DNA from: an uncultured Clostridia bacterium
GTDB lineage: Bacteria > Bacillota > Clostridia > Christensenellales > UBA1242
Assembly (NCBI GenBank): GCA_944362545.1
Contig: CALVTJ010000002.1
Span: 36,134-100,133, forward strand
Direction of reading: 5' to 3'
DNA: 64,000 nt
This document shows, in pieces, positions 18,229-41,357 of the stretch. Position 1 is the first letter of the stretch; each line of letters starts with the position of its first letter. A program made the position numbers and the translations under genes. The notes beneath the pieces are model-generated. The model was not told the origin of the DNA, did no database searches, and saw only the letters and a program-made list of their open reading frames with translations.

Positions 18229-18303
18229 ATATATTGTAATCACTTACATCTTGTTTTTTACGCTAATGAAGATTATAAAAATTATGGTTTGTGGGAGTTG
18301 TCA

Positions 18304-19245
18304 ATGACATCTTCAAGATATAAAAGATTGACAGGATTTGTACTTATTGTTGCCATTGCATTGGTGACCGGTTTTCTTGTTGGGAAGATTTATGTTGACA
18401 ATCTTGAACCTCCGACACAAGTCAGTGCAGAAGAGTCTTCTTTGCGAGAAAGTGAAGAAACAATAAAAGATTGGGTTGAGCAGGCAGAAAGTGGCAAAAG
18501 TGCGACCTCTTTTTCAGCTGTTGAACTTTACAATATAGCAGAATATAAACTTTACAATGCGGATAAATATTACAAAGTTATGACAGGAAAGGTCTCAAAC
18601 ACATTCAGTTCTCCACAAGAGATGAGAGGAATTAAGATTTTTAATGATGGCATTTTGGCTTATGACAAACTCAGTCCATCAAGCATTCCAATCGCAAATA
18701 TCTGCTCACGTATTGTCTATGACACTAATACAGGCAAAATCAAAATCAATTCAAATGGCAGTTGGGCGAGTGGAACTGCCGATATTACTGGTGTTTTTGA
18801 TAAAAATAAATTTGATGATTACACATTGGAGGAATACAAAGAAAAATATAATACTATTCCAACCAATGTTATGCCATATATAATTTCCAGTATTACTTGC
18901 AGTCAAGAAGGCTCCATAACGCCTGTTGTGTCAAATGGAGATGGGACATATTCTTTTTCGATAAAGTTGAGTGGAGATAATTTGACACTTGCTGCACTCT
19001 ATTATTCTTACGAAATTCAAATTTCAAGTGGAGCAATGAATTTGCCGACTTGGAAGTCTCTCCAAATGAATGTGACTATTGATGAAGATTTTAATTTTAA
19101 AACCATTAGTTATGTTGAAATTTATGGTGTTAAAATGAATATTTTGGGCGGAATATCTGCCACTGTCACCGACAATTTTGTAGATAATTTCTATTTTGGC
19201 GATGCCGTGCCAGAGATTCCGGCAGATGTTAAGGAGATTTTGTGA
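18304..19245 (+). CDS. Membrane-anchored extracytoplasmic protein, unknown function (313 aa)
   Basis: GGGAG lies 6 nt before the ATG at 18304. N-terminal TM anchor GFVLIVAIALVTGFLV. The stop overlaps the next start (TGATG). Confidence 0.6.
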   Translation: MTSSRYKRLTGFVLIVAIALVTGFLVGKIYVDNLEPPTQVSAEESSLRESEETIKDWVEQAESGKSATSFSAVELYNIAEYKLYNADKYYKVMTGKVSNTFSSPQEMRGIKIFNDGILAYDKLSPSSIPIANICSRIVYDTNTGKIKINSNGSWASGTADITGVFDKNKFDDYTLEEYKEKYNTIPTNVMPYIISSITCSQEGSITPVVSNGDGTYSFSIKLSGDNLTLAALYYSYEIQISSGAMNLPTWKSLQMNVTIDEDFNFKTISYVEIYGVKMNILGGISATVTDNFVDNFYFGDAVPEIPADVKEIL

Positions 19246-22200
19246 TGGAAGCACCAAGAAACACAAATCATAATTTTCTCCCTAGAATGTTTAAGGCGTT
19301 CACACTCTATTTTGTGATTACGCTGGCTGTTTTTTTTGGTTATGTGCAAATTTTTGGAGATATAAAACCAAAAATCATAACCTTGCCTACAGGCGATGCG
19401 GAAGCGGGGGATGAATCTCTTTTTGGACAGTTTGTTGAAAAGATGACAAACTTTCAAAATGTGGATGCAAACTTCAACCTGTCTTTTGAGAACAATTCTT
19501 TGCAGGTTGAAGCACAAGGCAATGTTGTGTTTGATATGGAAACTGGAGGATTTTCTGCTGACATTGATTTGATTTACAACGATCAGACATTTGACATTAA
19601 AGCCGTTTTTGCAAATTCAAATGTCTATCTTTCCGTGGATGAAAACACGTACAAGTTTGATACATCGAATGGTGTTGATGCATCTAGCATGTTTGATGTT
19701 TTGTCGCAGGTGATTGACTTTTCATCTGTTTTGGATGGTATTGGCGACACCTTGGGCATTGACTTGGCAAATCTTAATGTCGACAACATTTTGTCAAGTT
19801 TGACTGTTTCAAGTGAGCAGAATGAAGAAACAGGAGATATTACATTTGTGATCGGTCTTGGAAATGTGATAAGTGCACAGGTTGTGTGTGATGAGAATTT
19901 TGATATCAAGACTGTCAGACTTCGTGATGTTTTGATTTCTGGAAATAGCATAAAATTTAGTGCTATGGTCAATGGCATGAATAAGGATGACATTGCTGTA
20001 AGCTATATTGAAACAGGTGATGAGATTGATATGTCAGGGCTTGTAGACTATGTAAACTATGCTCAAAACCTTTTTGAAAATGATGTTGTTGGCGTAAATG
20101 TGACAGTGACAGCAAATGGCGAAAAGTATGATGGCAGTCTTGTTATTGACCAAACGGAAGGAATGAAGGTTGGCTTGCAGACAGCATATAATGGTTTGGA
20201 TATTGCACTTGTTTATGCGGATGATATGATTTATGTTGATGTTGGAAGTTTGAAACTTTCATTTAATGTCAATGATTTTGAAAAATGGAAAGATAAACTT
20301 GAGACAATAATTGAACATTACACATCCAAAAACACAAGTGATTTTGTCGCCGACCTTTTGGAAGAGTATTTTGATTTAAACATTGAAAGTCTTGATGCAA
20401 ATGAGATTGCAAAACAGATTTTAGGCAAATTTTTTGACAGCGAAGATAAGATATCTTCCGTTTTGCCAAACAAAACAAGTGTGAATGGCAATCAGTTTAT
20501 TCTTGATTGGGAAAATGGTTTGAAGATTGTTTTGACTCAAGCAGATGACATCCTTTCAAATGTTGATGTGACATTTGACAGCATCAACATGTTTGCCGAG
20601 TTTGAAATTTTGCAAAATGGCATCACTATCAGTGGAGATTATTTTGACTTGACAAATCTTTTGCCAATTGCAAACATTGTTGAAACAGGCATTTTTGAGG
20701 CTGACTTTACCGCATCTTATAACACTCTTGATTTGTCAGGAACAATCAAAGTGAATGGAAAAGAACTTGAAATTTCAAACTTGCTTGTGATGGGCGAATA
20801 TGCAAACATTAGACTTCATGAAAATGTGCTTTATTTTGCCTATGGAAACATGAAAGTCAAGTTTGATTTGAATGATATTCAAAATGGAAATGTTGACATC
20901 AAGCAAGTGCTCAATCAAATCACTTCACAAAGTTTTGGCGTAGAGATTGATTTTGGAGTGTTTAAAGAGTTGGTTGATATGTTGACAAACTGGACAATGC
21001 AAGATTTTCTTGATAGACTCACTATCACACTTGATGGAAATGCTGACAGGATAAGTTTGACATTGGAAAACGAGAAAAATTATACTTCATCGAAAATTTT
21101 GACTGCGTATATCGACTTTTTGAACAACAATCTTTCAAATGTGCAGGTCAATCTTTATGATGTTGTAAGGGCGAACTTGCAAGTTTTGTCAACAGACACT
21201 TCGACAATTGAACCATTTAATGAAGAAGATTATCAAGATTATTCATCCGATTTTGTTAGCGGAATGTTTGACAGTTTGAAGGTGGCCGAAGATGTTTATG
21301 CACTTTCAAGCAACATTGCAATCCGCTACAGCACGAACAATTTCTATGGGCAATTGACTGCAATGCTTGTGATGGATGAAAATGCCGATGAATTTGGCGG
21401 ATTTATGCCGGCGGTGTCAATTTATACCACTTCGCTTGGACTTGACAGTTATGTTTATCTGATTGGAAAAGATGTTTATGTTGATATAAATGGTCTTCAG
21501 GTGACTGCTGATTTGAGTCAAGACACAATAGATGAAATTTTGGGTTTTGTTGAAGATAACTTTGCCATCTCTCTCGGTGGAGAGACATTGACCACCACAA
21601 CAACAGCATTCAGAGTTATTTTGCCAGCACTTGACCAAATTTATGGACATTGGGTTGCGGGAGAATTTGGGAATGGACTTCAGATTGATATCAATGATGA
21701 CTTGTGGTATCAAGAAAATGCAAGATTTTATGACATTGTCCTGCAAATTTTGATTGATAACTATCAAAACACAATCATTCCAACTCAAATTGTTGTTGGA
21801 GCAAACATTGAAGATGAAAACACAACAGTTTATGATGATTACAGCGATGCTTGGCTGAAAAACGGAGATGAACTGTTGGAAAAAGAATTGACACAACAAC
21901 TCAACTTTGCAGTTTATTTGACTGATATTGTTGTGGGTTCAAATATCGAAAATCTTGCATCAATTTTTGTCACTGATGGTGGTTGGGAAAACATTATTGC
22001 CGTAAAATCAAACTACGGAACAACAAATCTTGCTGATTTCAATTCTTACAAGACTTTACTTGACTTTACCGAAACCGTTGTTGACTATGGCAAATCATTG
22101 AATTATCAATTTGATATCACTGCAAGCATTGCAAATGATACATCAACAACCACACTTGGTGGAGATGCAATTATTGAGGTTGGAGATTTGCCAGAAGGGG

Positions 22201-23729
22201 CAGAAAACACCAGCGGTTTTGAACTTTTTGATGGAAAGTTTTTGAAGGTTCAAAGCGGACTTGACATAACTGCAGGAGACACAAGACATCTTGTTGACTT
22301 GTTATATGAAAGCAATGATTCCAGCGCACTTTATGTGACATATTCGCATGGTGCAGAAATTGATGCGGGCAACAAGTTTAGAGCAAAGGTCAATAATTCA
22401 AATTTGAGTGAAATCATTTCAATGCTTTTGAAGTTTGCAAATATTGACATTGGAAATGATCTAATGACAGCATTGAGTTTGCAAGAGAGTAATATTGATT
22501 TTAGGTTTGTTCAGTCTTTGCTTGGAATAACAGAAAATGATATAAGTGATGATGTTTCACATGTTGACCAAATTTTGAGTTCTGTTGAAAATATCACAAA
22601 AATGTTGCATTTAATCACATTGCAAAAAACACAAATGGGAAATGGCTTGTTTGAAACATCAATTAAAATTCAAATTGACATCAACGGCAAGATTGCTGTT
22701 GCCACATTTGTGACTCGTGAAGAATTGCAAGAAAATGGCCAAGTGTCAACAGTTTTGAGAAATATCAGTGTGGAAAACCTTGTGTTTGGTGAAAATGTTT
22801 TGAGCATTACAATTCAAATTCAGGATTTTGATTCAAATAATTTTGATTATAACACGCAGGAGACACACATTGATTTCAGTGATATCTCAAGTTTTGTGGA
22901 TGTTGCAGTAAACACATTAAACACAAAGGGTGCGAGTTTCAAAGGCTCAACTACTATCTCAATTCCTTTGTTTGGAGACATCAATGTTGGGTTTGATGTG
23001 TTTATGGGACTTGATGAACATAATGAATTTTACCTTTATCTTGAACTTGATGTTGGAGAAAAGAGAGAAATTACATGGACTGCTGTGAAAGGCAATGATA
23101 CTTATACCACTTATAATGTTGTATTGGCCAGAAAACCTTGGGATAAGAGAATAACAACTGTTGAATATAAATCCGGAGTATTGAATATTGTCAACACAAC
23201 TTATGGCAGTCGTTCAACTGATTTGTCATCCCCGAAAGATATCGTTAAAACATATTCTTATAAAGCTGAAGATATAGGACAAAATTTGATGCTAATTATG
23301 GCACAAGCACTTGGTCTTACCAATGTTGGCTATGATGCCATTAAGTTGGCGATCGAGATGATGGATCCTAATCCAACTATTGAACAGGCAGTAAAAGGTT
23401 TTTCTTATAATTCTAACAATTATTCTTTGACTATAAACGCAGAAAATCTTACAGGAATGAGTGGAATCCGTGACATTACATTAAATATTGGTGTAAGCAA
23501 AGATTATGTCGTGGATGTGGACAACAGTGAATTGGGGACATACCAAAAATCTCACAAATTTATTGATAAAATAACCACAGAAATCAACATTGCAGACATT
23601 ATTGTGATTCCATTGACATTGCAGTCTGTTGAAGGAACAAATTACACAACAGCAGGGGGAAGGTTGATTTACACAAATGAATATTACAGGCAACAATATT
23701 TGACCAGCATTGGAAAGATTGTCAGTTAA
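19245..23729 (+). CDS. Giant membrane-anchored protein, unknown function (1494 aa) with internally repeated modules
   Basis: Translationally coupled to the upstream gene. N-terminal TM helix FTLYFVITLAVFFGYV. The rest is beta-rich and N/D/T-rich, with a recurring Y-V/L-x-V...K-F-D/N motif roughly every 200 aa. Confidence 0.65.
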   Translation: MEAPRNTNHNFLPRMFKAFTLYFVITLAVFFGYVQIFGDIKPKIITLPTGDAEAGDESLFGQFVEKMTNFQNVDANFNLSFENNSLQVEAQGNVVFDMETGGFSADIDLIYNDQTFDIKAVFANSNVYLSVDENTYKFDTSNGVDASSMFDVLSQVIDFSSVLDGIGDTLGIDLANLNVDNILSSLTVSSEQNEETGDITFVIGLGNVISAQVVCDENFDIKTVRLRDVLISGNSIKFSAMVNGMNKDDIAVSYIETGDEIDMSGLVDYVNYAQNLFENDVVGVNVTVTANGEKYDGSLVIDQTEGMKVGLQTAYNGLDIALVYADDMIYVDVGSLKLSFNVNDFEKWKDKLETIIEHYTSKNTSDFVADLLEEYFDLNIESLDANEIAKQILGKFFDSEDKISSVLPNKTSVNGNQFILDWENGLKIVLTQADDILSNVDVTFDSINMFAEFEILQNGITISGDYFDLTNLLPIANIVETGIFEADFTASYNTLDLSGTIKVNGKELEISNLLVMGEYANIRLHENVLYFAYGNMKVKFDLNDIQNGNVDIKQVLNQITSQSFGVEIDFGVFKELVDMLTNWTMQDFLDRLTITLDGNADRISLTLENEKNYTSSKILTAYIDFLNNNLSNVQVNLYDVVRANLQVLSTDTSTIEPFNEEDYQDYSSDFVSGMFDSLKVAEDVYALSSNIAIRYSTNNFYGQLTAMLVMDENADEFGGFMPAVSIYTTSLGLDSYVYLIGKDVYVDINGLQVTADLSQDTIDEILGFVEDNFAISLGGETLTTTTTAFRVILPALDQIYGHWVAGEFGNGLQIDINDDLWYQENARFYDIVLQILIDNYQNTIIPTQIVVGANIEDENTTVYDDYSDAWLKNGDELLEKELTQQLNFAVYLTDIVVGSNIENLASIFVTDGGWENIIAVKSNYGTTNLADFNSYKTLLDFTETVVDYGKSLNYQFDITASIANDTSTTTLGGDAIIEVGDLPEGAENTSGFELFDGKFLKVQSGLDITAGDTRHLVDLLYESNDSSALYVTYSHGAEIDAGNKFRAKVNNSNLSEIISMLLKFANIDIGNDLMTALSLQESNIDFRFVQSLLGITENDISDDVSHVDQILSSVENITKMLHLITLQKTQMGNGLFETSIKIQIDINGKIAVATFVTREELQENGQVSTVLRNISVENLVFGENVLSITIQIQDFDSNNFDYNTQETHIDFSDISSFVDVAVNTLNTKGASFKGSTTISIPLFGDINVGFDVFMGLDEHNEFYLYLELDVGEKREITWTAVKGNDTYTTYNVVLARKPWDKRITTVEYKSGVLNIVNTTYGSRSTDLSSPKDIVKTYSYKAEDIGQNLMLIMAQALGLTNVGYDAIKLAIEMMDPNPTIEQAVKGFSYNSNNYSLTINAENLTGMSGIRDITLNIGVSKDYVVDVDNSELGTYQKSHKFIDKITTEINIADIIVIPLTLQSVEGTNYTTAGGRLIYTNEYYRQQYLTSIGKIVS

Positions 23730-23781: not shown

Positions 23782-25512
23782 TTATCTCTTTTTTAGTTCG
23801 CTGATGTCAAATGGATGCGAAAGAGTGGATTTATATCTTTCAATTGTTTCATCATCCAGGCGTGCAAACAGTGGTTTTGGAGAGTTTGTCGTGTGTGACT
23901 TTGAAATGTCAATTTGGCTCGCTTTTTGCCATATTTCAGAGGCATCTGGGCGACCTGTGAAGTTGAGTTGTTCTGTCCATATTTGTGCTGTTCTGTTTGG
24001 AATGATCGGACTCGCTACAATAGCAAGTGCTTTTGCCATGTTCAAACACAGATAAAGCACTTTTTTTGCACTTTCCATGTCTCCATTTTTGATGAGTGTC
24101 CATGGTGCAGATTTTTCAAGATAGATGTTTCCTATGCTTGCAAAACGCATGATTTCTTTGTATGCCGACCTAAATTCTGTTTGGGCATAAAGGTCGCCAA
24201 TTTGATCTGGCAGGGTGGTGATTGCATCTACCATTTCTCTGTCATTGTCATTGAGATGGTTTTTGATGTCATCAAAGTCGATGCCAAGACAACCAGCAAA
24301 GTTTTTGTGTATCATGTTTAATGTGCGGTTGAAGAAGTTGCCATATTTACCAACAAGTTCGGCATTTGTGTTGAGTTTAAACCCTTCATATGTGAAGTCG
24401 CTGTCCTTGTTTTCCGGGAAGATAGACACAAGATATGCGCGCAGAGCATCAATATCAATATCGCTATCCATGAGATTATTACAGAAAATACCAATTTTCT
24501 TTGATTTTGAAAATTTTTGTCCCTCAAAATTCAGGAAATTGAAACCGACAACATTTTCGGCAAGGTTATACTTTTTGCAAGCAAGTTCCATACTTGGAAA
24601 GAAAATTGCGTGAAAATCGATGTTATCTTTGCCAATGAAGTTGTATATTTTGCAGTCCTTGTTTTGCCAGCGGTCCTTGACCATGTCATCTCCTCCGAGT
24701 TCTTTGGTGATGGAAATGTAGCCAATAGGCGCATCAAACCAGACATAGAAAACTTTATCCTCATAACCTTTGAGTGGCACTTTGATGCCCCAAGGAATGT
24801 CACGAGTGATACAACGCGGTTGTAGTCCTTCTTTAAACCACTTGTTTGTCATACTATAAACATGAGGACGCCAAACATCTTTCTTGCTTTCTACCCATTT
24901 TTGAAGTTGTGGCTGAATTTTGTCGAGTGAAACATAAATGTGTTTTGTCGATTTTTTGACAGCATCTTTGCCACAAAAACTGCACTTTGGATTGATAAGA
25001 TTATCAAGTTCGTATGTTTTGCCACAGTTGTCGCATTGGTCGCCATAGGCTTTGTCGTATCCGCAATATGGGCAGGTGCCATAGACAAATCTGTCAGCAA
25101 GAGCTATTTTGTCATGCTCGCAATAGAGCATGGTGCTTTCCTTCTCGACCGTGTAGCCATTTTTGTAAATCTCGTTGAAAAAGTCGACTGTGACTTCTTT
25201 GTGAGTTTCGTTGTTTGTTCCGCTGAAAATATCAAAACTGATATCCAATTTTTTTGCAATATCTTTGATTTTTGTATTCATAGTATGGATGAATTCTTCT
25301 GGTTTCAGACCGACTTCTCTTGCCGAGATGAAACTTGCGGTGCCATAATCATCAGTTCCACTTACATAGATTACATCATCACCGGCGGTTCTGTGATAGC
25401 GTGCAAAGATGTCGCCAGGGAGCCAACATCCAACAACATGTCCAAGATGTGGCAGTCCATTAACATACAAAAGTGCAGAGGTGACTAATATTTTTTCCTT
25501 TTTCTTTTTCAT
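23782..25512 (-). CDS. metG: Methionyl-tRNA synthetase
   Basis: HIGH motif NGLPHLGH, zinc knuckles CPYCGYDKAYGDQCDNCG and CSFCG, KMSKS variant KFSKSKK. Confidence 0.95.
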   Translation of the reverse strand: MKKKKEKILVTSALLYVNGLPHLGHVVGCWLPGDIFARYHRTAGDDVIYVSGTDDYGTASFISAREVGLKPEEFIHTMNTKIKDIAKKLDISFDIFSGTNNETHKEVTVDFFNEIYKNGYTVEKESTMLYCEHDKIALADRFVYGTCPYCGYDKAYGDQCDNCGKTYELDNLINPKCSFCGKDAVKKSTKHIYVSLDKIQPQLQKWVESKKDVWRPHVYSMTNKWFKEGLQPRCITRDIPWGIKVPLKGYEDKVFYVWFDAPIGYISITKELGGDDMVKDRWQNKDCKIYNFIGKDNIDFHAIFFPSMELACKKYNLAENVVGFNFLNFEGQKFSKSKKIGIFCNNLMDSDIDIDALRAYLVSIFPENKDSDFTYEGFKLNTNAELVGKYGNFFNRTLNMIHKNFAGCLGIDFDDIKNHLNDNDREMVDAITTLPDQIGDLYAQTEFRSAYKEIMRFASIGNIYLEKSAPWTLIKNGDMESAKKVLYLCLNMAKALAIVASPIIPNRTAQIWTEQLNFTGRPDASEIWQKASQIDISKSHTTNSPKPLFARLDDETIERYKSTLSHPFDISELKKR

Positions 25513-25638
25513 AAATTTATCCTTCTTTTTTCAAAAATGTGTGATTTTTTTCTGTTTTTTTAATAAAAATGCTGTTTTTTTGCAATTTTTATATTTTTGC
25601 AATTTTTGATTTTACAAAAATTAAATTTTTTTCATTTT

Positions 25639-26961
25639 TTATTCACACATTCGGTCGTCTTTGATTTTTTCAACAATTTTTTCGATAGGAAGTTTTTCCT
25701 GACTTGATGTTGCCATATTTTTGAGAGTGTATTGTTTTGATTGGAATTCATCACTGCCGACAATCAAAACATATTTTATGTTTCTGCGATTTGCTTCTTT
25801 CATTTTTGACTTGAATGTCTTGTTTTCATAAAGGCAATCTGCTCTCACACCATTATCTCTCAAAAGAGTTGTCAAACGCAAGCCTTCTTCCAAAGTGTCA
25901 TCAAAAGTGATGATGGCACACTCAATTTCGTTGTATTTTTCGAGGTTGAAGTAATTTTCTTTAAGCAAAATGTCAAACAGGCGGGTGACTCCTACGCTCA
26001 TTCCAACACCGGGCATTTTCTTATCAGAAAAATAACTGCAAAGATTGTCAAATCTTCCACCACCACCAATCGCTCCGAGTTCTTCTTTTCCTTTTATAAA
26101 GCCTTCAAAAACTGTGCCGGTGTAATAATTGTGTCCGCGAATGATTGAAAGGTCAAATGTGACTGCTGTTGCACCGAATGATTTGAGATATTTGTTTGTC
26201 TCTTCAAGTTCATCAATGCCTTGGCAAAAAAGTTGGTTTTTGCTAAAGTTTCGCAAAATTGACAAAATTTCCTCATTTTTTCCTGATAATTGTGCAATTT
26301 TTGTGATTTTTTCGCTATTTTCCTGTGAAAGTCCAATTTCTTTGAGTTGTGACACAATTTCTGTATATGGAAGTTTTGCTAATTTGTCCAAAACAATAAA
26401 GATGTATGTCGATTTTTCTTCCATCCCGATTTCTTGAATGAAACCGGCAAGTATTTTTCTGTTTGAGAGATGAATTTCAACATCAAGTTTGAGTGCTTTG
26501 AAGCATTTTTCAAAAAGAGACACACATTCTGCATCAGCAACAAGTGAAAGGGTTTCATTTCCAATGATGTCAGCATCACATTGATAAAATTCTCTGAAAC
26601 GCCCCTTTTGTGGTCGTTCTCCGCGATAAACTTTTCCTATTTGATATCTTTTGAATGGAAAGTTAAGCTCTTCTTTGTGCATGGCGACAAAGCGTGCAAG
26701 AGGCACCGTTAAATCATATCTCATGCACATGTCAGTTGAGCCTTTTGTGAAGCGATAGACCTCTTTGTCTGTGTCTCCACCACTTTTTGCAAGCAGTGTT
26801 TCAGAGTATTCTAGCACAGGAGTGTCAAGTGGAACAAAGCAGTTTTCTTTAAAAGTATCTTCTATGGTGTTTAAAAAAGATGAGAACAGCATTTGTTGCT
26901 TTGGCATAAGTTCCCAAAACCCTTGCAACTTTCTCGGAATAATCAGATGTGAATTGTTCAT
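25639..26961 (-). CDS. hisS: Histidyl-tRNA synthetase
   Basis: Class II motifs RYDLTVPLARFVA, FREFYQCDADIIG and GGGGRFDNL. The C-terminal anticodon-binding domain is present (IKYVLIVGSDE). Confidence 0.93.
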   Translation of the reverse strand: MNNSHLIIPRKLQGFWELMPKQQMLFSSFLNTIEDTFKENCFVPLDTPVLEYSETLLAKSGGDTDKEVYRFTKGSTDMCMRYDLTVPLARFVAMHKEELNFPFKRYQIGKVYRGERPQKGRFREFYQCDADIIGNETLSLVADAECVSLFEKCFKALKLDVEIHLSNRKILAGFIQEIGMEEKSTYIFIVLDKLAKLPYTEIVSQLKEIGLSQENSEKITKIAQLSGKNEEILSILRNFSKNQLFCQGIDELEETNKYLKSFGATAVTFDLSIIRGHNYYTGTVFEGFIKGKEELGAIGGGGRFDNLCSYFSDKKMPGVGMSVGVTRLFDILLKENYFNLEKYNEIECAIITFDDTLEEGLRLTTLLRDNGVRADCLYENKTFKSKMKEANRRNIKYVLIVGSDEFQSKQYTLKNMATSSQEKLPIEKIVEKIKDDRMCE

Positions 26962-27078
26962 TTTTTCTCCTTGAAATTTCTTGTAATAATGTGTGTAAAT
27001 ATATAATATTTTTCTTTAAATTCTAATATAATTTTTTGATAATTGTCAATGTTTTTGTTCAGTTTTAAGGTCTAAAGT

Positions 27079-27259
27079 TGTGCACAAAGATTTTCCACTT
27101 ATCCACAAATTTATATTTATTCACAGCAATTTATGTTTATACAAACAGTGTTTTTTTGAGAAAATGTGAAGAAAACCACATGAGTTATCCACATTTCCAC
27201 ATTTTTGTGGACAATTCTTTCAAAAATCATTACATATACCATGATTTTTGTGAATATAA
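27079..27259. promoter_or_regulatory. DnaA-box cluster
   Basis: Perfect TTATCCACA at 27099-27107 and 27185-27193. One-mismatch boxes are TTATTCACA (27117-27125) and TGTGGACAA (27206-27214, reverse complement of TTGTCCACA). Two-mismatch boxes lie at 27079-27087, 27193-27201 and 27249-27257. Confidence 0.75.
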
Positions 27260-27389
27260 TTGTGTAAAACTTTATTTTTATGCAAAGTAGATTTTTCGAC
27301 ATTTATGTATAATTTTTTTTGTGTTTAAAAGGGACTAAAAATATTTATGAATTTATACATTTTTGATGTATAAAAATGCACTACAAATT

Positions 27390-29423
27390 CTACTTTTTTT
27401 TCTTGTTATTTTTAAGCAAAAACTTGCTTGGTTTGCTGTCACTCAAAAAGTAGAGTTTGTGAAGTGCTCGTGTTGAGGAAACATACAGAAGATTTCGGTC
27501 GAGTTCGTTGCGATAATTTTCCGCATTTGCAAAAGGAATAATCACACAATCAAATTCGATTCCTTTCGCTTTGGCTGGTGTTGTGATAATTCTGCGAGAG
27601 GCTACTTGTGTGTCGCTCATGATTTTGAATTTTGAGATAAGGGCACTTTCCTTTTGAAGTTTTGCTATTTCATCCTTCGATTTGCAGATGATGGCAACGC
27701 TCTGTTTTTTAAGTTTACTGTCACTCTCGCGCAGTTTCAAAACTTTGTCAATTGCTTTTGCACAACTTTTGACTTTCAAACATTCCACTTCCTCTCCATT
27801 GCGGTTGACATTTTGTGCTATGCGTTTGCCGAGTATTTTTTGCGAGAAGAGAGAAATTTGCAAGGTGCTTCGATAGGACTTTGTCAAAAATTTGACCTTT
27901 GCGTGCGTTAATTTTGCAAGATATGTGAGATATTCTGGTGACAATGTTCTGTCAATGCTTTGATAAACATCTCCAAGATAAAGTTTTTGACACTTCCAAA
28001 TTTTGTCAAAAAGGTAGAAGTGACATGGGGTGTAGTCTTGCATTTCATCCACGATGACATATTTGGCATCAAAGTCTTTTTTCAGTCCAAACAAATTTTC
28101 TTTGATGAGCATGACAGGAGCAATATCATACGCTCCGATGCTTGTCACTTCGGAAAGTTCTTGGCTTCGCAAAAACAGATTGTAAATGCGCAAAAGGTCA
28201 ACTGTCATGAAATTGTGATACAAAATCTTTTTAGCACGTTCGACAAGTTCGTTGTGTTCAATCTCTGTCACATTGAAGCGGTCGGCGATATTTTCTGCCA
28301 GAACTTCCACTCTTTTGTGAACAGGTAGTTTTGACAGGCGATTGAAGTAGACATCATGCAGATCTTCTTTTGTTATCACCATTTCCTGAAAGTTTAATGT
28401 CTTTGGAATAAACAAATTGCAAATGTCATGGTCAAGAAAGTTTTTTAGTGCATCCAAAAATTCAAAACTTGATTTGACAGCAATGTTTTCAAAATCTTGT
28501 TGATTTTGCTTGCTGATAACTCTTTCAAGCATGTCTTCTCTGGATTCAAACGGAAGATTTAACAGGCGCTTTGCCATGTTTGAAAAGGTGGTTGTAAATG
28601 CTCTACTTTCGCCAAGGGTTGGCAAAACTTCACCAATATAATCGGCAAAACTTTCGCTAGGAGACAAAATCAAGATATCTTCACTTTTGAGTTTGTCACG
28701 ATATTTATATAAAAGATATGAAACACGGTGCATGGCAATGGAAGTCTTTCCGGAACCTGCCACACCTTGCACGATGGTGTTTTTCATGTCATCGGCACGA
28801 ATCAAAACATTTTGTTCTTTTTGAATGGTTGACACAATGTCGTGCATTTTGGTGGTGGCATTCTTTGAGAGTTGTTCCATCAAGATTTCATCATCAATCA
28901 CCATGTTGCTGTCGATGTAGTAAACAAGTTTCCCATTTTGAATCTTGAATTGGCGTTTGAGGGAAACATCCCCACTTATCTGCCCTTGTGGGCAGGTGTA
29001 GCTGGTGTGACCGATTTGGTCATCATAATAGATGGAACAAACATCTGCACGCCAATCATAGACCCAATTGGTTTCGTTTTTATCTTGAACAAGTCCAAGT
29101 CCGATATAAAATTTTTGTGGTGTCGTTTGGTCATCTGCCTTGAAATCAAACCTTCCAAAGTATGGATTTTTCTTCTGGCGGTCTAGCCTTTGAAGTTCTC
29201 TTGTTAGAGAAAGATTTTGCTGGTCAAGGATTGTCATTTGAGCACGCAAACTGCCAGCCTCATCTTTGACATAATAGTAATTTTCTGCGATATACTTTTG
29301 CAGTTTTTGGATGGTGTCAAGATTTTCTTTATATTTTTTTTGCCCATCTTCTTTTAAAATGTCAATCTCGGCAAGTGTCCGCGAAAGATATTCTTTCTCC
29401 AACTCATTATCTTTCTTGTCCAT
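27390..29423 (-). CDS. helD: HelD-like superfamily 1 helicase (UvrD/Rep family, RNAP-associated helicase IV type)
   Basis: HelD-type N-terminus with coiled coil and NPYFGRFDF...FYIGLGLV. Walker A GVAGSGKTS, Walker B VIVDEMQDYT, then SYRST and GIEFDCVIIP. Confidence 0.8.
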   Translation of the reverse strand: MDKKDNELEKEYLSRTLAEIDILKEDGQKKYKENLDTIQKLQKYIAENYYYVKDEAGSLRAQMTILDQQNLSLTRELQRLDRQKKNPYFGRFDFKADDQTTPQKFYIGLGLVQDKNETNWVYDWRADVCSIYYDDQIGHTSYTCPQGQISGDVSLKRQFKIQNGKLVYYIDSNMVIDDEILMEQLSKNATTKMHDIVSTIQKEQNVLIRADDMKNTIVQGVAGSGKTSIAMHRVSYLLYKYRDKLKSEDILILSPSESFADYIGEVLPTLGESRAFTTTFSNMAKRLLNLPFESREDMLERVISKQNQQDFENIAVKSSFEFLDALKNFLDHDICNLFIPKTLNFQEMVITKEDLHDVYFNRLSKLPVHKRVEVLAENIADRFNVTEIEHNELVERAKKILYHNFMTVDLLRIYNLFLRSQELSEVTSIGAYDIAPVMLIKENLFGLKKDFDAKYVIVDEMQDYTPCHFYLFDKIWKCQKLYLGDVYQSIDRTLSPEYLTYLAKLTHAKVKFLTKSYRSTLQISLFSQKILGKRIAQNVNRNGEEVECLKVKSCAKAIDKVLKLRESDSKLKKQSVAIICKSKDEIAKLQKESALISKFKIMSDTQVASRRIITTPAKAKGIEFDCVIIPFANAENYRNELDRNLLYVSSTRALHKLYFLSDSKPSKFLLKNNKKKK

Positions 29424-29455
29424 GGGGTTTTCACCTCCTGTTTTTGTAAGAAAAT

Positions 29456-32029
29456 TTATTCTTCATCAAGGTTCGTTGATTCATATGTCACAGCATCGGT
29501 TTGTGTTGCTTCTTCATCTTGTGCTATTTCAGTTGTAGAATTATATGAATTTTCAGAATCTTCTTCATCTTCTTTTTCAGCAAGTGCAACACCGGTGATT
29601 TTGGCATTATTTTTAAGTTTCATAATCTTCACACCTTGGCTGACTCTTGAGAAATGACTGATGTCAGCGGTTGGGGTGCGAATAATCACTCCGTTGTCTG
29701 CAATGAGAAGCAAGTCGCAATCTTCTTCAATTTGTTTGAGTGAGACAAGTTTGCCGGTCTTTTCATTGAAAACACCGGCTTTCACACCGCTTCCACCGCG
29801 CTGTTGAAGTCTAAATTCATCAATTTTTGTTTGCTTGCCATATCCATTTTCGGAAATGGTGATGATGTTTGTGTTTTCATGAACGATTGCCATGTCAACA
29901 ACATAATCCCCATCGGCAAGTTTCATGCTTCTCACACCTTGGCTGTCTCTGCCGACAAGTCGGACATCAGTTTCGTTGAAGCGGATACATTTTCCATCAT
30001 GAGATGCAACCAAAATGTCATCTCTGCCAGATGTGATGTCAACGCCGATGAGTTCATCTCCATCAACAAGTTTGATGGCAATCTTGCCTACCTTTCTTAT
30101 GTTTTCATATTCCGACAGTGGTGTCTTTTTGATAAGACCATTTTTGGTTGCCATAATTAAATTGCCCTTTGCATCCTTTTTGAGTGGAATGATGGCATTG
30201 ACCTTTTCGCCAAGAGAAAGTTGCAAAAGATTGATGATGGCTCTTCCCTTTGCCTGTCGTTGTGCTTCTGGAATTTCATACGCCTTGGCGCTGTAAACTT
30301 TGCCAAGATTTGTAAAGTAGAGAAGTTCATCATGTGTCGAGCAGACAAACATCTTTTCCACAAAATCCTCATCTTTGGTCTTGTGGGCGGTTATGCCGAC
30401 TCCACCGCGATGTTGTGCTTTATATTCATCTGCTGACATACGCTTGATATAGCCCATGTGTGTCATAGATATGATGACATCTTCTTCGGCAATCAAATCT
30501 TCAATGTCAATTCCTCCCATTTCCATGCTGATTTCGGTCTTACGCTTATCTCCAAATTGCTGTTTGACCTCTTCCAAATCATCTCTGACAATCTTCAAAA
30601 CTCTTGCCGGCTTGTCAAGAATATCTTTAAGGTCGGTGATAGTCGCTTCCAACGAGGCGAGTTCTTCATTGAGTTTTTCCACTTCCAAAGATGTGAGTTT
30701 TGAAAGTTTCATTTCCAAAATGGCGTTTGCTTGAATTTCATCAAGTTCAAATTGTGTGGTCAAGTTTGTGACTGCTTCGTTCTTGTCAGATGATTGTTTG
30801 ATAACCTTGATAACTTCATCGATGTTTGCAAGCGCAATAACCAATCCTTTGACAATATGTTCTCTCTCTTCCGCTTTTTTAAGGTCATAACGTGTCTTGC
30901 GCACAACCACTTCTTTTTGGTGTTCAAGATAATAATAGAGCATCTCCTTCAGGTTGAGCACTTTTGGGACGCCGTTTACAAGGGCGAGCATGATGATGCC
31001 ACTGCTTTGTTGAAGCATGGTGTGTTTGTAAAGAAGGTTCAAAACCACCTGTGCATTGGCATCCTTTTTGATGTCAACAACAACTCTCAAACCATCTCTG
31101 TCACTTTCATCACGCAGGTCGCTGATGCCATCAATTTTTTTGTTTTTGACCATGTCGGCCATTTGTTGAATGAATCGCGCTTTGTTGACCTGATATGGAA
31201 GTTCGGTAATCAAAATTCTTTGTCTGCCAGATGATGTTTCTTCAATCTCGGCACGACCTCTGACCAAAATTCCACCACGCCCGGTTTTGTAGGCATGTTT
31301 AACTGCCGTTCTGCCCATGATAATTCCACCGGTTGGATAGTCAGGTGCAGGGATGATTTTGATAAGTTCATCAATGTCGATGTCTGGGTTGTCAATCATG
31401 GCTTGCAGACCGTTTATAACTTCGGTTAAGTTGTGTGGTGGGATGTTTGTTGCCATGCCGACAGCAATGCCATCTGCACCATTTACCAAAAGATTTGGAA
31501 ATCTTGAAGGCAAAACCATAGGCTCTTGCAAGGTGTCATCAAAGTTTGGTCTGAAGTCAACTGTTTCTTTGTCAATGTCACGAAGCATAAGTTCGGCAAT
31601 CTTTGAAAGTCTTGCTTCGGTATAACGCTGTGCGGCTGGTGGGTCTCCATCGACAGAACCAAAGTTTCCGTGTCCATCAACGAGTGGATATCTTATTGAA
31701 AAGTCCTGTGCAAGTCTTACCAAAGCATCATAAATTGAACTGTCGCCATGTGGGTGATATTTTCCCATAACTTCACCGACAATTCTTGCACTCTTTTTGT
31801 ATGGTTTGTCATAGAAGTTGTTGAGTTCTCCCATGCTATACAAAATTCTTCTGTGAACAGGCTTGAGTCCATCTCTAACATCCGGAATCGCTCTTGAAAC
31901 ATTGACAGCCATGGCATAGGCAACAAACGACCTTTTCAGTTCGCCAACAACTTCAATCGGTTTGATTTTTTCATTTGCAAAGAGTTCTCGCAGATTTTTT
32001 TTCTTCTCTTCATCTTCTTTCTTGCTCAT
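29456..32029 (-). CDS. gyrA: DNA gyrase subunit A
   Basis: [20 protein letters not shown] and the QRDR-like region [18 protein letters not shown]-terminal beta-pinwheel repeats and an acidic tail. Confidence 0.98.
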
Positions 32030-32063
32030 TTTTCTTCCTCATTTTCTTTATATTTTATCTTGA

Positions 32064-34151
<2,088 letters not shown>

Positions 34152-34262: not shown

Positions 34263-34286
34263 AATTTGGCAAAAAGGATATGGAAA

Positions 34287-35420
34287 ATGGGAATCAAATC
34301 AGCTAATGCTTCAGTAAAAAAATATGATTTTGAAACTTTTATGAGAAAGTTTGAAAAAGTTGTTGGACAATTGACCATAGAAGAGGGATACAAACTTTAC
34401 ACAGAAAAAAAGTGTATTTTTGTCAATTCAAAGCCAAAGCAAGGAGCCAAAGAATTTTCTAGCTTTTATTGTTTTAATGAGAGAGACTATTCAGCCCTCA
34501 ATCTTGTTCTTTCTGATATCAGCAAAAAAATATCTGCACTTCGCAAAGGAAGCCTTGAAAGAGCAGACAAAATGGACAAAGTTGAAGAAATTATGAGAGG
34601 TGTGATATATGAGGTAGAATCTGATCCGGAATCTGCTGTTTTTATTTCAAATTATTATTACAAAAAATTTATCAAACCATATATCAAAAAAATTTATGAT
34701 TATTACACAAAAAACGAATTTGATGCCAATGAATGTAAGCAAATGTATATGCAAGCGCACAATGATATTTTAAAACATAAAGTGTTTGGACAATTTGTTG
34801 ATAGTAATTATATCATAAACAATTTTTTAACCTTTAACACTGCTTTTCAATTTGTCTTTGAGTATGCATATTCAAAACGATACACCGAAAAAACAAAAGA
34901 GGATTTTTTAAAACTTATTTTTAATACTTATGAGTTGGAGTCTGGGCATGCAAATCAAGGTTTTAGGTCACATAATGTGAGAATAAGGAAAGGAAATTGG
35001 ACTCCTGTCGATGGTTCACAAGTTGGGAAAAGTATGGATATTTTGTCAGATTGGTATGCAAACAGCAGAGATGCGAAAAGTTTAAATCCAATTGAATTGG
35101 CGTGCATAATTCATTGTGAACTTGTGCGTATGCAACCATTTTCAGATGGAAACCACAGACTTGCAAGACTTGTTGCAAACGAAACATTGATTGAAGCAGA
35201 TTTTCCATCCGTTTCCATTCCTTTCAATTTGAGAGATGAATACAACAAGGCGACTAACAAGGCAATTGAAGAACACGATATTGATGATTTAATTGACATT
35301 TATTATGAACAGGTATATAAAAATGCATTGAAGATAAATAAATGTCTTGATAAAGAAGAGAAAAAACAAGAGAATCAAGATAGAAAAAGAGAAAATGAAG
35401 GCGCAGAAATGCAACTGTAA
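34287..35420 (+). CDS. Fic/DOC-family protein with a non-canonical active-site motif
   Basis: Fido core IIHCELVRMQPFSDGNHRLARLVANE aligns to HPFx[DE]GNGRxxR but reads QPFSDGNHR. Flap-like GFRSHNVRI lies upstream. ATG at 34287 follows AAAGGA. Confidence 0.75.
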   Translation: MGIKSANASVKKYDFETFMRKFEKVVGQLTIEEGYKLYTEKKCIFVNSKPKQGAKEFSSFYCFNERDYSALNLVLSDISKKISALRKGSLERADKMDKVEEIMRGVIYEVESDPESAVFISNYYYKKFIKPYIKKIYDYYTKNEFDANECKQMYMQAHNDILKHKVFGQFVDSNYIINNFLTFNTAFQFVFEYAYSKRYTEKTKEDFLKLIFNTYELESGHANQGFRSHNVRIRKGNWTPVDGSQVGKSMDILSDWYANSRDAKSLNPIELACIIHCELVRMQPFSDGNHRLARLVANETLIEADFPSVSIPFNLRDEYNKATNKAIEEHDIDDLIDIYYEQVYKNALKINKCLDKEEKKQENQDRKRENEGAEMQL

Positions 35421-35465
35421 AAGAAGGGCAACTGTAAAGTTGTTTTTTTTCTTTGCATAAAACTC

Positions 35466-35494
35466 TTGACAATGCATATAAATGTGTGTATAAT
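35466..35494 (+). promoter_or_regulatory. Consensus sigma-A promoter of tRNA-fMet
   Basis: TTGACA (35466-35471), 17-nt spacer, TATAAT (35489-35494). The tRNA starts 13 nt later. Confidence 0.75.
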
Positions 35495-35506
35495 AAAAAA
35501 TGATGA

Positions 35507-35583
<77 letters not shown>

Positions 35584-35591
35584 GAAAAAGA

Positions 35592-35634
35592 AATCGCTAT
35601 ATGCCTGTAAAATAAAGGTGTATAGCGATTTTTC
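35592..35634 (+). terminator. Terminator after tRNA-fMet
   Basis: 10-bp stem aatcgctata / tatagcgatt, 19-nt loop, then TTTTC. Confidence 0.55.
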
Positions 35635-35747
35635 ATTTATAATAAATGTTGTCAAGATGATATTGTTTTTATTCAAAATTTGTCAATGTGTGAGAAAAGT
35701 GTGAGATGTTGAAAAAAATAAAGCAGAGTTTTTATTTGCTCTACTTT

Positions 35748-35948
35748 TCAGTCATTTATAAGTTCATCAATGCTGATGTTGAAGATTTTTGAAAGTTTTC
35801 GTAGCATGGCAATAGAGGGTTCGGTTCGACCTTGTTCCCAATTTGCATAACAACTTTCAACAACACCAAGTTTGTCAGCCACTTGCTTTTGTGTGAGATT
35901 GTTGTCCTTTCGTGCGATTTTCAGATTTTCACAAAAATTTTTATCCAT
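35748..35948 (-). CDS. XRE-family HTH transcriptional regulator (66 aa)
   Basis: LTQKQVADKLGVVESCYANWEQGRTEPSIAMLRKLSKIFNISIDELI is a classical Cro/C1 HTH. TAAAAT lies 6 nt upstream of the ATG with no SD. Confidence 0.88.
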   Translation of the reverse strand: MDKNFCENLKIARKDNNLTQKQVADKLGVVESCYANWEQGRTEPSIAMLRKLSKIFNISIDELIND

Positions 35949-35957
35949 GCCTATATT

Positions 35958-36010
35958 TTATCTAAAACTAGACAAAATATCTTGACACTAGACAATTTAT
36001 CTAGTATAAT
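35958..36010. promoter_or_regulatory. Divergent control region: consensus promoter whose spacer is an operator-like repeat set
   Basis: TTGACA (35982-35987), 17-nt spacer, TATAAT (36005-36010). Four 7-8-bp half-sites are present: TTATCTA (35958), CTAGACAA (35968), CTAGACAA (35988), TTATCTAG (35997). Confidence 0.6.
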
Positions 36011-36029
36011 ATATCCATTGGAGGCAAAT

Positions 36030-36728
36030 ATGGAAGATATAAGAATTGCAGAAGATGAAGAACAGAAACTTTTACATATCAAATTTACTATGCCATGGTT
36101 TTTGCATATGATATTTATTCTCGGATGTTTAGTTATGTTGGTGTGTGCGATTTTGATGACACAACCGCCAATTATAGGTGAGATTGTTGCACTTTATTGG
36201 ATTCTGTTTGTATTTTTTTTGGTAGTTTATATTGCGTATTTGTTTGGTATTAAGCATCAAGAGTGTGTTGTGACAGATAAAATGATAAGAGGAAATCAAT
36301 TTATATTGTTTGGCTACAAAAGATATGGTTTTAGATTTGACACAATCAGCAATGTTGAAGCGAAAAATGTGTTTGGTGTAAACAATATTCGTTTGACATT
36401 CACACAAGGCTACACAAGTTTAGAGAGAAATGGAAAGTGTTATTATGATCTTAAATGTGTGGCCGATTATGAATATGTGATTGAAAAATTAAATCAAATA
36501 TTATCAAAAGTTAAAAATGACAAAGATGTTTCATCAAAACTTGCACTCAAGCAAACGGAGGCGTTAAACAACATTGCATCTTCCATGAAAAATGTTCCTG
36601 AAAACAATTCCAGAAATAATGAAGATGTGGTTGAGTCAATCAAGAAATTGAAAGAACTTTTGGACAGCGGAATTATCACACAACAAGAATTTGAAGAGAA
36701 GAAAAAGAAATTGTTGGAAAAAATTTAA
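36030..36728 (+). CDS. Membrane protein with bPH_2/DUF304-like domain and C-terminal SHOCT domain
   Basis: GGAGG lies 5 nt before the ATG at 36030. Two TM helices are followed by ECVVTDKMIRGNQFILFGYKRYGFRFDTISNVEAKNVFGVNNIRLTF (PH-like). The C-terminus SIKKLKELLDSGIITQQEFEEKKKKLL is SHOCT. Confidence 0.65.
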   Translation: MEDIRIAEDEEQKLLHIKFTMPWFLHMIFILGCLVMLVCAILMTQPPIIGEIVALYWILFVFFLVVYIAYLFGIKHQECVVTDKMIRGNQFILFGYKRYGFRFDTISNVEAKNVFGVNNIRLTFTQGYTSLERNGKCYYDLKCVADYEYVIEKLNQILSKVKNDKDVSSKLALKQTEALNNIASSMKNVPENNSRNNEDVVESIKKLKELLDSGIITQQEFEEKKKKLLEKI

Positions 36729-36768: not shown

Positions 36769-37557
36769 TTAAATTATCATTGTGGCGACAAGGCAGAAGA
36801 ACGCAAGGAAAAGTGCCAAGTGGTCAAATCTGCTTTTTAAGAAGTTTTCAAGGCAGGCATAGCCAGATAAAACAAGACAACCGATACAGAAGAGAATGTT
36901 TGTTATGTTTGTGGCATAGAGCAAAGCCGTTAGCATTTGCCCAAACAAAATGCCAATACCTAGAAACATAATAAACAAACTTAAAGTATCAAATGGATTT
37001 TTTATTTTTTTGAGAATCAGCAAAAGCAGTGTTAAGGCGCAGGCGAGTGCAAGACCAATCAAAAAGCCATAGAAAGTTTCCATGCCAATGTAAAGAGCAG
37101 AAAATGCCAAACATATGCTTGTCAAAAGAAAGGCAGAGTTTTGAAGGAGTGTTCCATCACTGTTTAAGAAGAGGTGCTTGCTTTGTCTCTTCTTGTCTTT
37201 TTGTTGCGGGACAGTTTCTTCTTCATTGATCACTTCTTCATCTGTCACTTCTTCTTTAATCTCTTTGGTTTCAGAAAGGTTATCTTCAGTCTGTGGCAAA
37301 CTTTCTTTTTTGATTTTTAAATATTCTTTTAAATTGAAAAGTGACAAAAATTGTGGAATGATTGCAATTATAATGAAAATTGAATAACCAGCAAAATTGT
37401 TGTGATAATTTGCACCAACTATTGCTAGGCAGACAAGACTTGCTAGAGCGAGAGTTTGAAACAAGAAAAGAAGTGTCTTGTTCTTTCTGAAAAAACAGAC
37501 ACAACCAGCCAAAATTGCTGTGGCAACAAACATACAAATTACCGCTACCAATAACAT
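36769..37557 (-). CDS. Polytopic membrane protein, unknown function, with a central acidic linker
   Basis: Multiple TM helices on both sides of an E/K-rich loop. I prefer the ATG at 37557 (MLLVAVICMF), which sits 6 nt after a TATAAT. Confidence 0.5.
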   Translation of the reverse strand: MLLVAVICMFVATAILAGCVCFFRKNKTLLFLFQTLALASLVCLAIVGANYHNNFAGYSIFIIIAIIPQFLSLFNLKEYLKIKKESLPQTEDNLSETKEIKEEVTDEEVINEEETVPQQKDKKRQSKHLFLNSDGTLLQNSAFLLTSICLAFSALYIGMETFYGFLIGLALACALTLLLLILKKIKNPFDTLSLFIMFLGIGILFGQMLTALLYATNITNILFCIGCLVLSGYACLENFLKSRFDHLALFLAFFCLVATMII

Positions 37558-37563
37558 ATTTTT

Positions 37564-37592
37564 ATTATAAACAAATTTTGGCAAATTGTCCA
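37564..37592 (-). promoter_or_regulatory. Promoter placed for leaderless translation of the membrane protein
   Basis: On the minus strand: TGGACA (37587-37592), 17-nt spacer, TATAAT (37564-37569), 6 nt, ATG. Confidence 0.5.
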
Positions 37593-37678
37593 ACAAAAAT
37601 AGTCAATTTTACAATATAGTAAAAAAGAAAGTCACAGGCAATTCGCTGTGACTTTTTTATCATGGAAAAATTTTATCA

Positions 37679-39358: not shown

Positions 39359-39480
39359 AGTTTTGCTCCTGTAATAATCAATATTTTAAGATATAACAAA
39401 AGCAAAAGTCAAGTGTAATAACATTAAGGTAAAGATTTTTTGTGCATTTATGTCGCGAGGAAAAATTCTTTTGCGAATTT

Positions 39481-39518
39481 GCAAAAAACAAAAAATCACA
39501 AACATTTTTGTTTGTGAT
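39481..39518 (-). terminator. Intrinsic terminator after sigH
   Basis: atcacaaac / gtttgtgat 9-bp stem with a U-tract on the minus strand (plus-strand A-run 39481-39494). Confidence 0.65.
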
Positions 39519-39533
39519 GGTTTTGTGAAATAA

Positions 39534-40148: not shown

Positions 40149-40248
40149 AGGCTTTCCTTTGCGCAAAAAATCGCTTTTATTTTTGTTTTTATTACGGTAA
40201 AAAATTGCAAAATGTTCAAAAATTTGAATAGGTGATGCAATTTTTTGA

Positions 40249-40974: not shown

Positions 40975-41357
40975 CTTTCTTCTCCATTTTCTCTCATTGA
41001 AAGTGACAAAATTTCTTGCAGTCTGTCAAATTTTTTGTGAAGATACAAAAATCCAACAAGTGCTTCAAATGCGGTGGCCTTTTTGTAGGTTTCTTCATCA
41101 AAGTTTTTGGCGGAATGTTTGTTGTGGCTGTTGCGCGCACGTCTGACAACATCCGCTTCTTCTTGACTTAAATCTGCTTGCAGTTTTTCCAAGGTTTGCA
41201 TCTGTCTTTTTGCATTGCAAAACTTTTTTGCAATGTTATGATAGTTGTTTATTTTGTTGATTTGCCCTTCTAGCACTTTTTCTCTGACATAGGTGGTGTG
41301 AATGGCATCGCCTAAAAATGCCAGAGCAAGCGGGGACAATTGGTCAATTTTTTCCAT
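40971..41357 (-). CDS. mrnC: Mini-ribonuclease 3
   Basis: LALAFLGDAIHTTYVREKVL and AFEALVGFLYL. Size is 128 aa and it sits upstream of rlmB. Confidence 0.88.
   Translation of the reverse strand: MEKIDQLSPLALAFLGDAIHTTYVREKVLEGQINKINNYHNIAKKFCNAKRQMQTLEKLQADLSQEEADVVRRARNSHNKHSAKNFDEETYKKATAFEALVGFLYLHKKFDRLQEILSLSMRENGEER

Follow-up and report, generated by a model that had tools for sequence, protein, structure and literature searches.

Why does a dense cluster of DnaA boxes lie between helD and hisS, beside gyrB and gyrA, and does it mark an origin of replication or a site of another kind? The question arises from a 64,000-nucleotide stretch of contig CALVTJ010000002.1 of an uncultured Clostridia bacterium (hereafter, the window), for which an initial annotation, made from the sequence alone, proposed either a relocated or split oriC or, as somewhat more likely, a secondary DnaA-box cluster that could also regulate hisS. 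The second proposal is favoured here because the signatures of an origin are absent and the cluster is deeply conserved just upstream of a conserved hisS promoter. The helD-hisS cluster is probably a selected, non-origin DnaA-box cluster similar to those of Bacillus subtilis, on which a DnaA oligomer would modulate hisS-metG and sequester DnaA; we assign this reading a probability of roughly 0.6.

A non-random cluster of DnaA boxes

The length and composition of the helD-hisS spacer (Table 1) agree with the region of about 430 bp of very AT-rich non-coding DNA that was first described, and all of the boxes listed in that description were recovered in place. These are two perfect TTATCCACA boxes (27099-27107 and 27185-27193, both on the + strand), two boxes with one mismatch (TTATTCACA at 27117, +, and TTGTCCACA at 27206, -), several with two mismatches (27078/27079, 27091, 27137, 27165(-), 27193, and 27249(-)), and a trio of adjoining boxes (27185-27193, 27193-27201, and 27206-27214 on the - strand). 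When boxes are mapped with the relaxed E. coli-type consensus TTATNCACA, allowing up to one mismatch, about ten fall within about 250 bp.

The cluster had been judged very unlikely to occur by chance, and both chance models reject it. None of 300 simulations under a window-wide, first-order Markov null contained at least four boxes, including at least two perfect ones, within 130 bp, and under a null of the spacer's own composition the probability was 2e-4 for at least four boxes and below 2e-4 for at least two perfect boxes. The 64 kb contain three perfect boxes against 0.6 expected. The third is located inside gyrB (33847-33855) as the reverse complement of GTT GTG GAT AAC, and it is regarded as a coding by-product outside the element because these codons encode the ‘VVDN’ ATPase motif of GyrB; in most related loci no corresponding extra box is conserved.

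The window as a whole also has an excess of boxes with up to one mismatch, even when the spacer is set aside (37 observed versus 19.4 +/- 3.5 expected; none of 100 shuffles reached 37). This window-wide enrichment could reflect codon or amino acid bias or a box-dense chromosomal domain, as reported near origins (PMC12371093).

Conserved architecture in related species

A HisS scan of species-representative genomes identified 33 loci, all from uncultured Clostridia (labelled Clostridia, Christensenella sp., Catabacter sp., or Candidatus Caccovivens), with HisS identities of 50-83% (up to 78% for full-length matches). The gene order gyrB-gyrA-helD-spacer-hisS-metG is kept in nearly all sufficiently long loci, and essentially all perfect boxes of each 16-21 kb related locus fall in the helD-hisS spacer. 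The alignment of 31 spacers from other species-level genomes (alignment A1) has a mean column identity of 39%. Within it, the 18-mer TGTGGAAATGTGGATAAC, read on the hisS-sense strand (27184-27201 in the window), is exact in every spacer-containing locus, that is, in 31 of 31 related species. The 18-mer constitutes the first of two tandem box pairs, pair A. The sequence TGTGGATAAGTGGA of the second, pair B, and the TGnATA..TAT motifs between the pairs are invariant or nearly so, and the two strong boxes are separated by 85-87 bp in 32 of 32 sequences.

Other boxes recur at set positions relative to the 18-mer, namely at -111, -68/-58, and -13 in one orientation and at +8, +56, +76, +94, and +115 in the other, with an opposed box at +27. 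Pooled over the 31 spacers, the orientation counts are 77 versus 18 on the helD side and 105 versus 25 on the hisS side. Based on these positions and counts, the element consists of two convergent arrays around two tandem high-affinity pairs, and the inverted box TTGTCCACA forms a convergent three-box core with pair A. Weak boxes of the TTATnCAAA type lie between and beside the pairs in steps of about 20 bp, or about two helical turns. Since the pairs are 86 bp apart, corresponding to about 8.2 turns, they likely lie on the same face of the helix. The phased weak boxes (+56 and +76) have the consensus TTATnCA(A/C)A in relatives and coincide with the invariant TGnATA..TAT columns of A1, and the promoter-proximal box reads TTATGCACA or TTATACACA in most relatives, fully matching TTATNCACA. 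The cluster is under selection as a deeply conserved, ordered array of DnaA recognition sequences.

Table 1. Features of the helD-hisS spacer and its flanking genes (window coordinates; ORF, open reading frame; GC, guanine plus cytosine content).
Feature	Coordinates	Strand	Description
helD-hisS spacer	26962-27389		428 bp; GC 22.4% (0.224 vs 0.370 for the whole window); contains the entire element; from ORF list, NCBIfam, and composition
Pair A	27184-27201	+	18-mer GTTATCCACATTTCCACA; perfect box 27185-27193 and overlapping weak box ATTTCCACA 27193-27201
Inverted box	27206-27214	-	TTGTCCACA; 4 bp from pair A; same offset (-13) in 25/31 aligned spacers
Pair B	27091-27107	+	Weak box TTTTCCACT (27091-27099) and perfect TTATCCACA (27099-27107); 86 bp from the perfect box of pair A
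Phased weak boxes	27117-27145	+	TTATTCACA (27117) and TTATACAAA (27137); orientation as pairs A and B; ~20 bp apart
Promoter-proximal box	27078-27087		TTGTGCACAA; position +115 in 25/31 spacers
Opposed weak box	27165-27173	-	TTCTTCACA; position +27; TTATCCCCA in several relatives
helD-proximal weak-box array	27249-27328	-	27249 ATATTCACA, 27261 TTTTACACA, 27304 TTATACATA, 27320 TTAAACACA; opposite orientation, converging on pair A
Sigma-70-type hisS promoter	27020-27049	-	TTGACA (27049-27044), 18-nt spacer, TAGAAT (27025-27020); 11/12 matches
hisS (histidine-tRNA ligase)	25639-26961	-	Downstream of the cluster; NCBIfam TIGR00442, 369.5 bits
metG (methionine-tRNA ligase)	23782-25512	-	After hisS, same strand; NCBIfam NF001100, 595.5 bits
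helD (RNA polymerase recycling motor)	27390-29423	-	Upstream of the cluster; NCBIfam NF041464, 409 bits, slightly under the curated cut-off of 419
gyrA	29456-32029	-	Upstream of helD; clear NCBIfam match
gyrB	32064-34112	-	Upstream of gyrA; clear NCBIfam match

The hisS promoter and a possible mechanism

The strong hisS promoter is kept in relatives as TTGACA-18-TAAAAT. Its -35 element follows pair B at 58-59 bp in 19 sequences, at 47-48 bp (one helical turn less) in 8, and at 93 bp in 2, the value for L022 having been read from alignment A1; thus, 27 of 32 close relatives have one of the first two distances. On the upstream side, the closest box stops about 28 bp short of the -35 element, and the hisS 5' untranslated region is short (15-78 nt) with AGGAGA as the ribosome-binding site.

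With this arrangement, DnaA may anchor at the two strong tandem pairs on the same helix face and then spread cooperatively onto the phased weak sites. The contacts would be made through domain I rather than by an AAA+ filament because the gaps between weak boxes are about 20 bp (compare the spacing arguments in PMC5742627). A defined nucleoprotein complex would thereby form at about -70 to -300 from the start of the hisS(-metG) transcript and would most likely couple hisS(-metG) transcription to the amount or state of DnaA. Such a complex would necessarily also act as a chromosomal DnaA sink, as the B. subtilis clusters do, and is predicted neither to unwind DNA nor to fire replication. That DnaA occupies the sites, in which direction it would affect transcription, and that it would be titrated are inferences; the conservation of the box positions in 31 species lends indirect support to occupancy.

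In B. subtilis, six non-origin clusters bind DnaA, regulate neighboring genes, and restrain initiation (PMC3245932; PMC4447404). The helD-hisS cluster resembles them in that many boxes, matching the consensus or close to it, are gathered in an intergenic region of a Firmicute outside oriC, with a promoter adjacent, and similar roles in the regulation of neighboring genes and in DnaA buffering may be expected. It differs from them in its flanks, which are helD and hisS-metG, and in its ordered, deeply conserved architecture, in which two tandem pairs of the origin type, separated by 86 bp, are combined with phased weak boxes and with arrays that converge. It can be placed among the non-origin DnaA-box clusters already known, as a new member with an unusually well-resolved architecture.

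Recurrence of the module in distant lineages

A metagenome scan recovered the 18-mer in many phyla, including at genuine origins beside dnaA or dnaN. The double-pair module, defined by the pattern TGTGGAAATGTGGATAAC, N67-87, TGTGGAWANGTGGAWAA, has counterparts on four metagenomic contigs, in each of which the 18-mer occurs in two exact copies at a distance of 95-105 bp, together with the same internal TTATnCAAA-type motifs, and in L029 of the genome set, where two exact copies are 85 bp apart; in these distant lineages, pair B is an exact second copy of the 18-mer. The module lies between tilS and hisS in L079 (HisS 44% identical), between a divergently oriented ytxC-like gene and metG in L083, and between helD and the contig end in L112. 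In L080, it follows an epimerase gene and precedes a 138-codon unannotated ORF and an rlmB-like methylase gene. The phased weak boxes are also retained in L029, L079, L080, L083, and L112, and in every distant case the downstream gene has the TGTGG strand as its sense strand. The double 18-mer recurs behind different upstream genes, and the module is an autonomous unit that repeatedly lies upstream of translation-related genes.

The 18-mer is also found in other arrangements. The dnaA-upstream clusters of the Firmicute-like contigs L117 (9643-9700), L091, L087, L119, and L096 reuse it with neighboring inverted boxes, and L117 has the same 18-mer-ATTTT-TGTGGACAA arrangement as the helD-hisS spacer. 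The three-box convergent core is thus a recurrent DnaA-binding building block. Clusters upstream of dnaA of the oriC1/incAB type also autoregulate dnaA. The helD-hisS cluster shares with them the boxes of mixed orientation around the same 18-mer, which upstream of dnaA in L117 is followed by an inverted box (GTTATCCACATTTCCACAatttttgtggacaac), and is unlike them in that the downstream gene is hisS and not dnaA and that no second unwinding half lies nearby. In high-GC (~70%) metagenome contigs (L046, L048, L051, L054, L067, L069, L103, L111, L114, L118, and L121), the 18-mer is followed by a third box at a fixed distance, with the pattern GCCCCGnTCGTCCACAGC, which looks like a conserved triple-box motif of the origin or DnaA site of another phylum.

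Promoter operator or DnaA-handling module

Several observations weigh against the favoured reading of a cluster that modulates hisS-metG and sequesters DnaA. No box overlaps the -35 or -10 element of hisS, and the module lies between about 34 and 190 bp from the best promoter candidate in the distant lineages. Since this distance varies, the internal architecture is more constrained than the relation to the promoter, and the variation accords with a self-contained module that handles DnaA no less well than with a promoter operator. No aminoacyl-tRNA synthetase gene is known to be regulated by DnaA, and a literature search for DnaA box and hisS gave no paper linking the two. Moreover, titration sites are usually origin-proximal, whereas the organism's own dnaA and oriC were not located in the window, the 10 kb past its left end (the left extension), or the related loci.

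The cluster could instead serve specifically to control how active or available DnaA is, sequestering DnaA or changing its nucleotide or oligomeric state so as to time initiation. It would then be an analogue of datA, of a DnaA-reactivating sequence (DARS), or of the B. subtilis clusters, in which case its position upstream of hisS would be incidental or a quiet intergenic site. We consider this possible but rather doubtful. The near-invariant internal geometry (the 18-mer, the 85-87 bp distance, and the phased weak boxes), set against the variable promoter distance in distant lineages, speaks for it, as does the restraint of initiation by the B. subtilis clusters (PMC3245932). The constant orientation of the module to a downstream translation gene in all lineages, on the other hand, would not be expected of a purely autonomous module. 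No conserved IHF-type site was found, the sole WATCAAnnnnTTR match (27026-27043) lying within the spacer of the hisS promoter of the window and not being conserved in A1. Firmicutes are not known to have Hda or IHF, which is a further point against a controller of this kind.

The topology of the three-box core is that of E. coli DARS1, in which, as in the DARS core generally, box I is opposed to boxes II and III at fixed spacing (PMC5742627). Read directly from MG1655, the DARS1 core is ->TTATCCACT, 5 bp, <-TTATCCACA, 3 bp, <-TAATACACA, and the corresponding order in the spacer is ->TTGTCCACA, 4 bp, <-ATTTCCACA, <-TTATCCACA. However, the co-oriented boxes overlap by 1 nt here and are separated by a 3-bp gap in DARS1, so that the start-to-start spacing is 8 nt versus 12, the strongest box is distal here and in the middle in DARS1, the spacer has no IHF or Fis sites, and the organisms belong to different phyla. 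The cluster also resembles E. coli datA as a non-coding intergenic group of co-oriented high- and low-affinity boxes, same-direction boxes at optimised intervals being a hallmark of datA (PMC5742627), although the number and spacing of the boxes differ and no conserved IHF site lies between them, where datA has an essential one. Because the spacings differ and a conserved IHF site is absent, membership in the DARS or datA class cannot be claimed.

A ‘decoy origin’ may also be envisaged, in which two copies of the origin tandem pair, lacking DnaA-trios, would nucleate an ordered DnaA oligomer that sequesters DnaA or alters its nucleotide or oligomeric state upstream of aminoacyl-tRNA synthetase genes and so couples translation capacity to initiation. 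This proposal is quite unlikely to be correct; if it were, the element would be the first datA/DARS-like element of defined architecture outside Proteobacteria, in Clostridia.

Evidence bearing on an origin of replication

That the spacer is a chromosomal origin that has moved away from dnaA, or forms half of a bipartite origin, is very improbable. In favour of an origin are the dense consensus boxes, with two origin-type tandem pairs identical to the pair beside the DnaA-trios of real origins, the very AT-rich surroundings, which include the least stable 51-mer of the window, and gyrB and gyrA, which are classically linked to the origin. GC skew was examined in the window, the left extension, and 26 related loci. 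In the window, the GC skew at third codon positions (GC3 skew) was split into coding-strand and chromosome-strand components, and strand composition was assumed to be tied to the direction of replication in the usual way. The chromosome-strand skew is +0.20 to the left of the spacer (20 genes) and +0.17 to the right (31 genes), and it is still positive 9 kb past the left end of the window. In the 26 related loci, genes co-oriented with hisS have a GC3 skew between -0.19 and -0.45 on the upstream side of the spacer and between -0.18 and -0.54 on its downstream side. At a bidirectional origin the skew would change sign, and since the sign is constant on both sides, the spacer does not hold one. 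The five genes around the spacer also share one direction, as had been suspected when no clear switch of gene orientation was seen.

Neither dnaA nor dnaN was detected by tblastn in the window, in agreement with their reported absence nearby. The DnaA query also gave no match in the related loci searched, and no DnaA or DnaN domains occur among the genes called in the left extension. The B. subtilis DnaA and DnaN queries were validated by matches of 87% and 75%, respectively, in Bacillus-like control contigs. A search for parS as a marker of the origin domain found none.

Origins of Firmicutes combine tandem DnaA boxes, a spacer, DnaA-trios, and an AT-rich region (PMC8287927; PMC6669920), and their basal unwinding system comprises one box or several in tandem, a spacer no longer than 16 bp, and at least three, typically 5-8, trios with a preference for GAT (PMC8287927). 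The dnaA-dnaN spacers of L064, L109, L100, and L077 have this form, with the same tandem 18-mer GTTATCCACATTTCCACA as in pair A, a 4-nt GC-rich spacer, 5-8 trios (CTA CTA ...; 3-5 CTA), and AT-only DNA. Used as positive controls, they gave these trio and CTA counts at spacer 12. By comparison, neither pair of the helD-hisS spacers has a GC spacer or a DnaA-trio array, in line with the failure to see trios at first inspection. The longest (.T.) runs at pair A are at chance level (up to 3, with a shuffle mean of 2.9), overlap the inverted box, and include 0 CTA, and those at pair B have a median of 2; where trios would be expected, pair A has the inverted box and pair B has weak boxes. The least stable 51-mer (26994-27044) adjoins the cluster but coincides with the hisS promoter and 5' untranslated region. 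For basal unwinding it would have to lie on the other side of the co-oriented boxes, and several other spacers show the same instability.

The helD-hisS spacer was therefore rejected as oriC on the constant GC3 skew, the absence of dnaA and dnaN, and the absence of trios, and the proposal of a relocated or split origin does not hold for the window or for the 26 loci. The cluster is not a member of oriC because, box clustering apart, it lacks the basal unwinding system, the sign change of the skew, and the adjacency to dnaA or dnaN that define this class.

The GC3 skew also identifies the + strand as leading along the entire window, with 25 of 51 genes head-on to replication in an orientation that is conserved in related species. 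The head-on genes (23782-34112 and 36769-46238) include gyrB, gyrA, helD, hisS, metG, a tRNA-synt_1c gene (Glu/Gln type), ychF, and an ORF of 1228 amino acids (aa). It is unusual for a Firmicute to have half of its genes head-on.

Other contents of the spacer

No T-box, riboswitch, or small RNA was found in the spacer, as Rfam at gathering thresholds reported only tRNAs in the window and a permissive scan of the spacer returned noise. RNAalifold predicted no base pairs on the 31 spacers, no frame for a small, sda-like ORF is open across species, and blastn of the core gave no match to plasmids or phages. An element unrelated to DnaA is very improbable, whether it were a chance AT-rich feature, a binding site for some other regulator, a small RNA or RNA leader, a short coding frame, or the remnant of a mobile-element replicon. 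Although the spacer is AT-rich and the repeated TGnATAAAnAT motifs could bind another factor, the chance models are rejected, the invariant positions coincide exactly with those of DnaA boxes, the RNA, ORF, and plasmid or phage searches were negative, and the housekeeping synteny is conserved.

An AT-rich inverted repeat follows the helD stop codon (27340-27385, -), with the sequence UUUAUACAU-CAAAA-AUGUAUAAA and then a U-rich stretch. It is a weak candidate for a helD terminator (-9.5 kcal/mol, z = -1.8), and the same region in relatives reads as repeated box-like TTTATnCA motifs. T-boxes are typical of Firmicutes, yet Rfam over the 64 kb gives no T-box leader for any of the three aminoacyl-tRNA synthetase genes, namely hisS, metG, and the one of tRNA-synt_1c type at 37679-39358.

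Gene neighborhood

Beyond gyrB, a Fic gene and a tRNA-Met gene were found, bearing out the report of a Fic/tRNA islet preceding gyrB. The islet occupies 34266-36728, between gyrB and the tRNA-synt_1c ligase gene, and consists of the Fic gene, a small helix-turn-helix gene, a SHOCT-domain gene, and the tRNA-Met gene. The similarity of Fic among related species is low and patchy (28-55%, and missing from many), which suggests that the islet is a variable, possibly mobile insertion at the place classically occupied by recF, dnaN, and dnaA. In the left extension, the gene order is groES-groEL-dnaG-sigA.

Four ORFs, of 1495 aa (19242-23729, +), 1228 aa (42552-46238, -), 806 aa (12570-14990, +), and 318 aa (18289-19245, +), have no Pfam match at E <= 1e-5. 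Those of 1495 and 318 aa also lack an NCBIfam match, and the former is convergent with metG. A protein of 123 aa (approximately 6404-6775, -; 15845-16216 in L040) consists of the C-terminal, DNA-binding domain of Spo0A alone and adjoins a cluster of seven tRNA genes.

Significance for DnaA regulation in uncultured Clostridia

Secondary loci that bind DnaA play a central part in setting when initiation occurs and have been characterised in few model bacteria, such as datA and DARS in E. coli and the six clusters in B. subtilis. The helD-hisS cluster adds a candidate locus in an abundant clade of uncultured gut Clostridia, and the comparative data show which boxes, spacings, and weak sites are selected. 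The reuse, at a non-origin site and without DnaA-trios, of a tandem pair that serves in origin unwinding calls for caution with predictors of oriC based on box density. In the biology of these bacteria, the cluster suggests a link between DnaA and the expression of aminoacyl-tRNA synthetases, whose genes here are without the usual T-box control.

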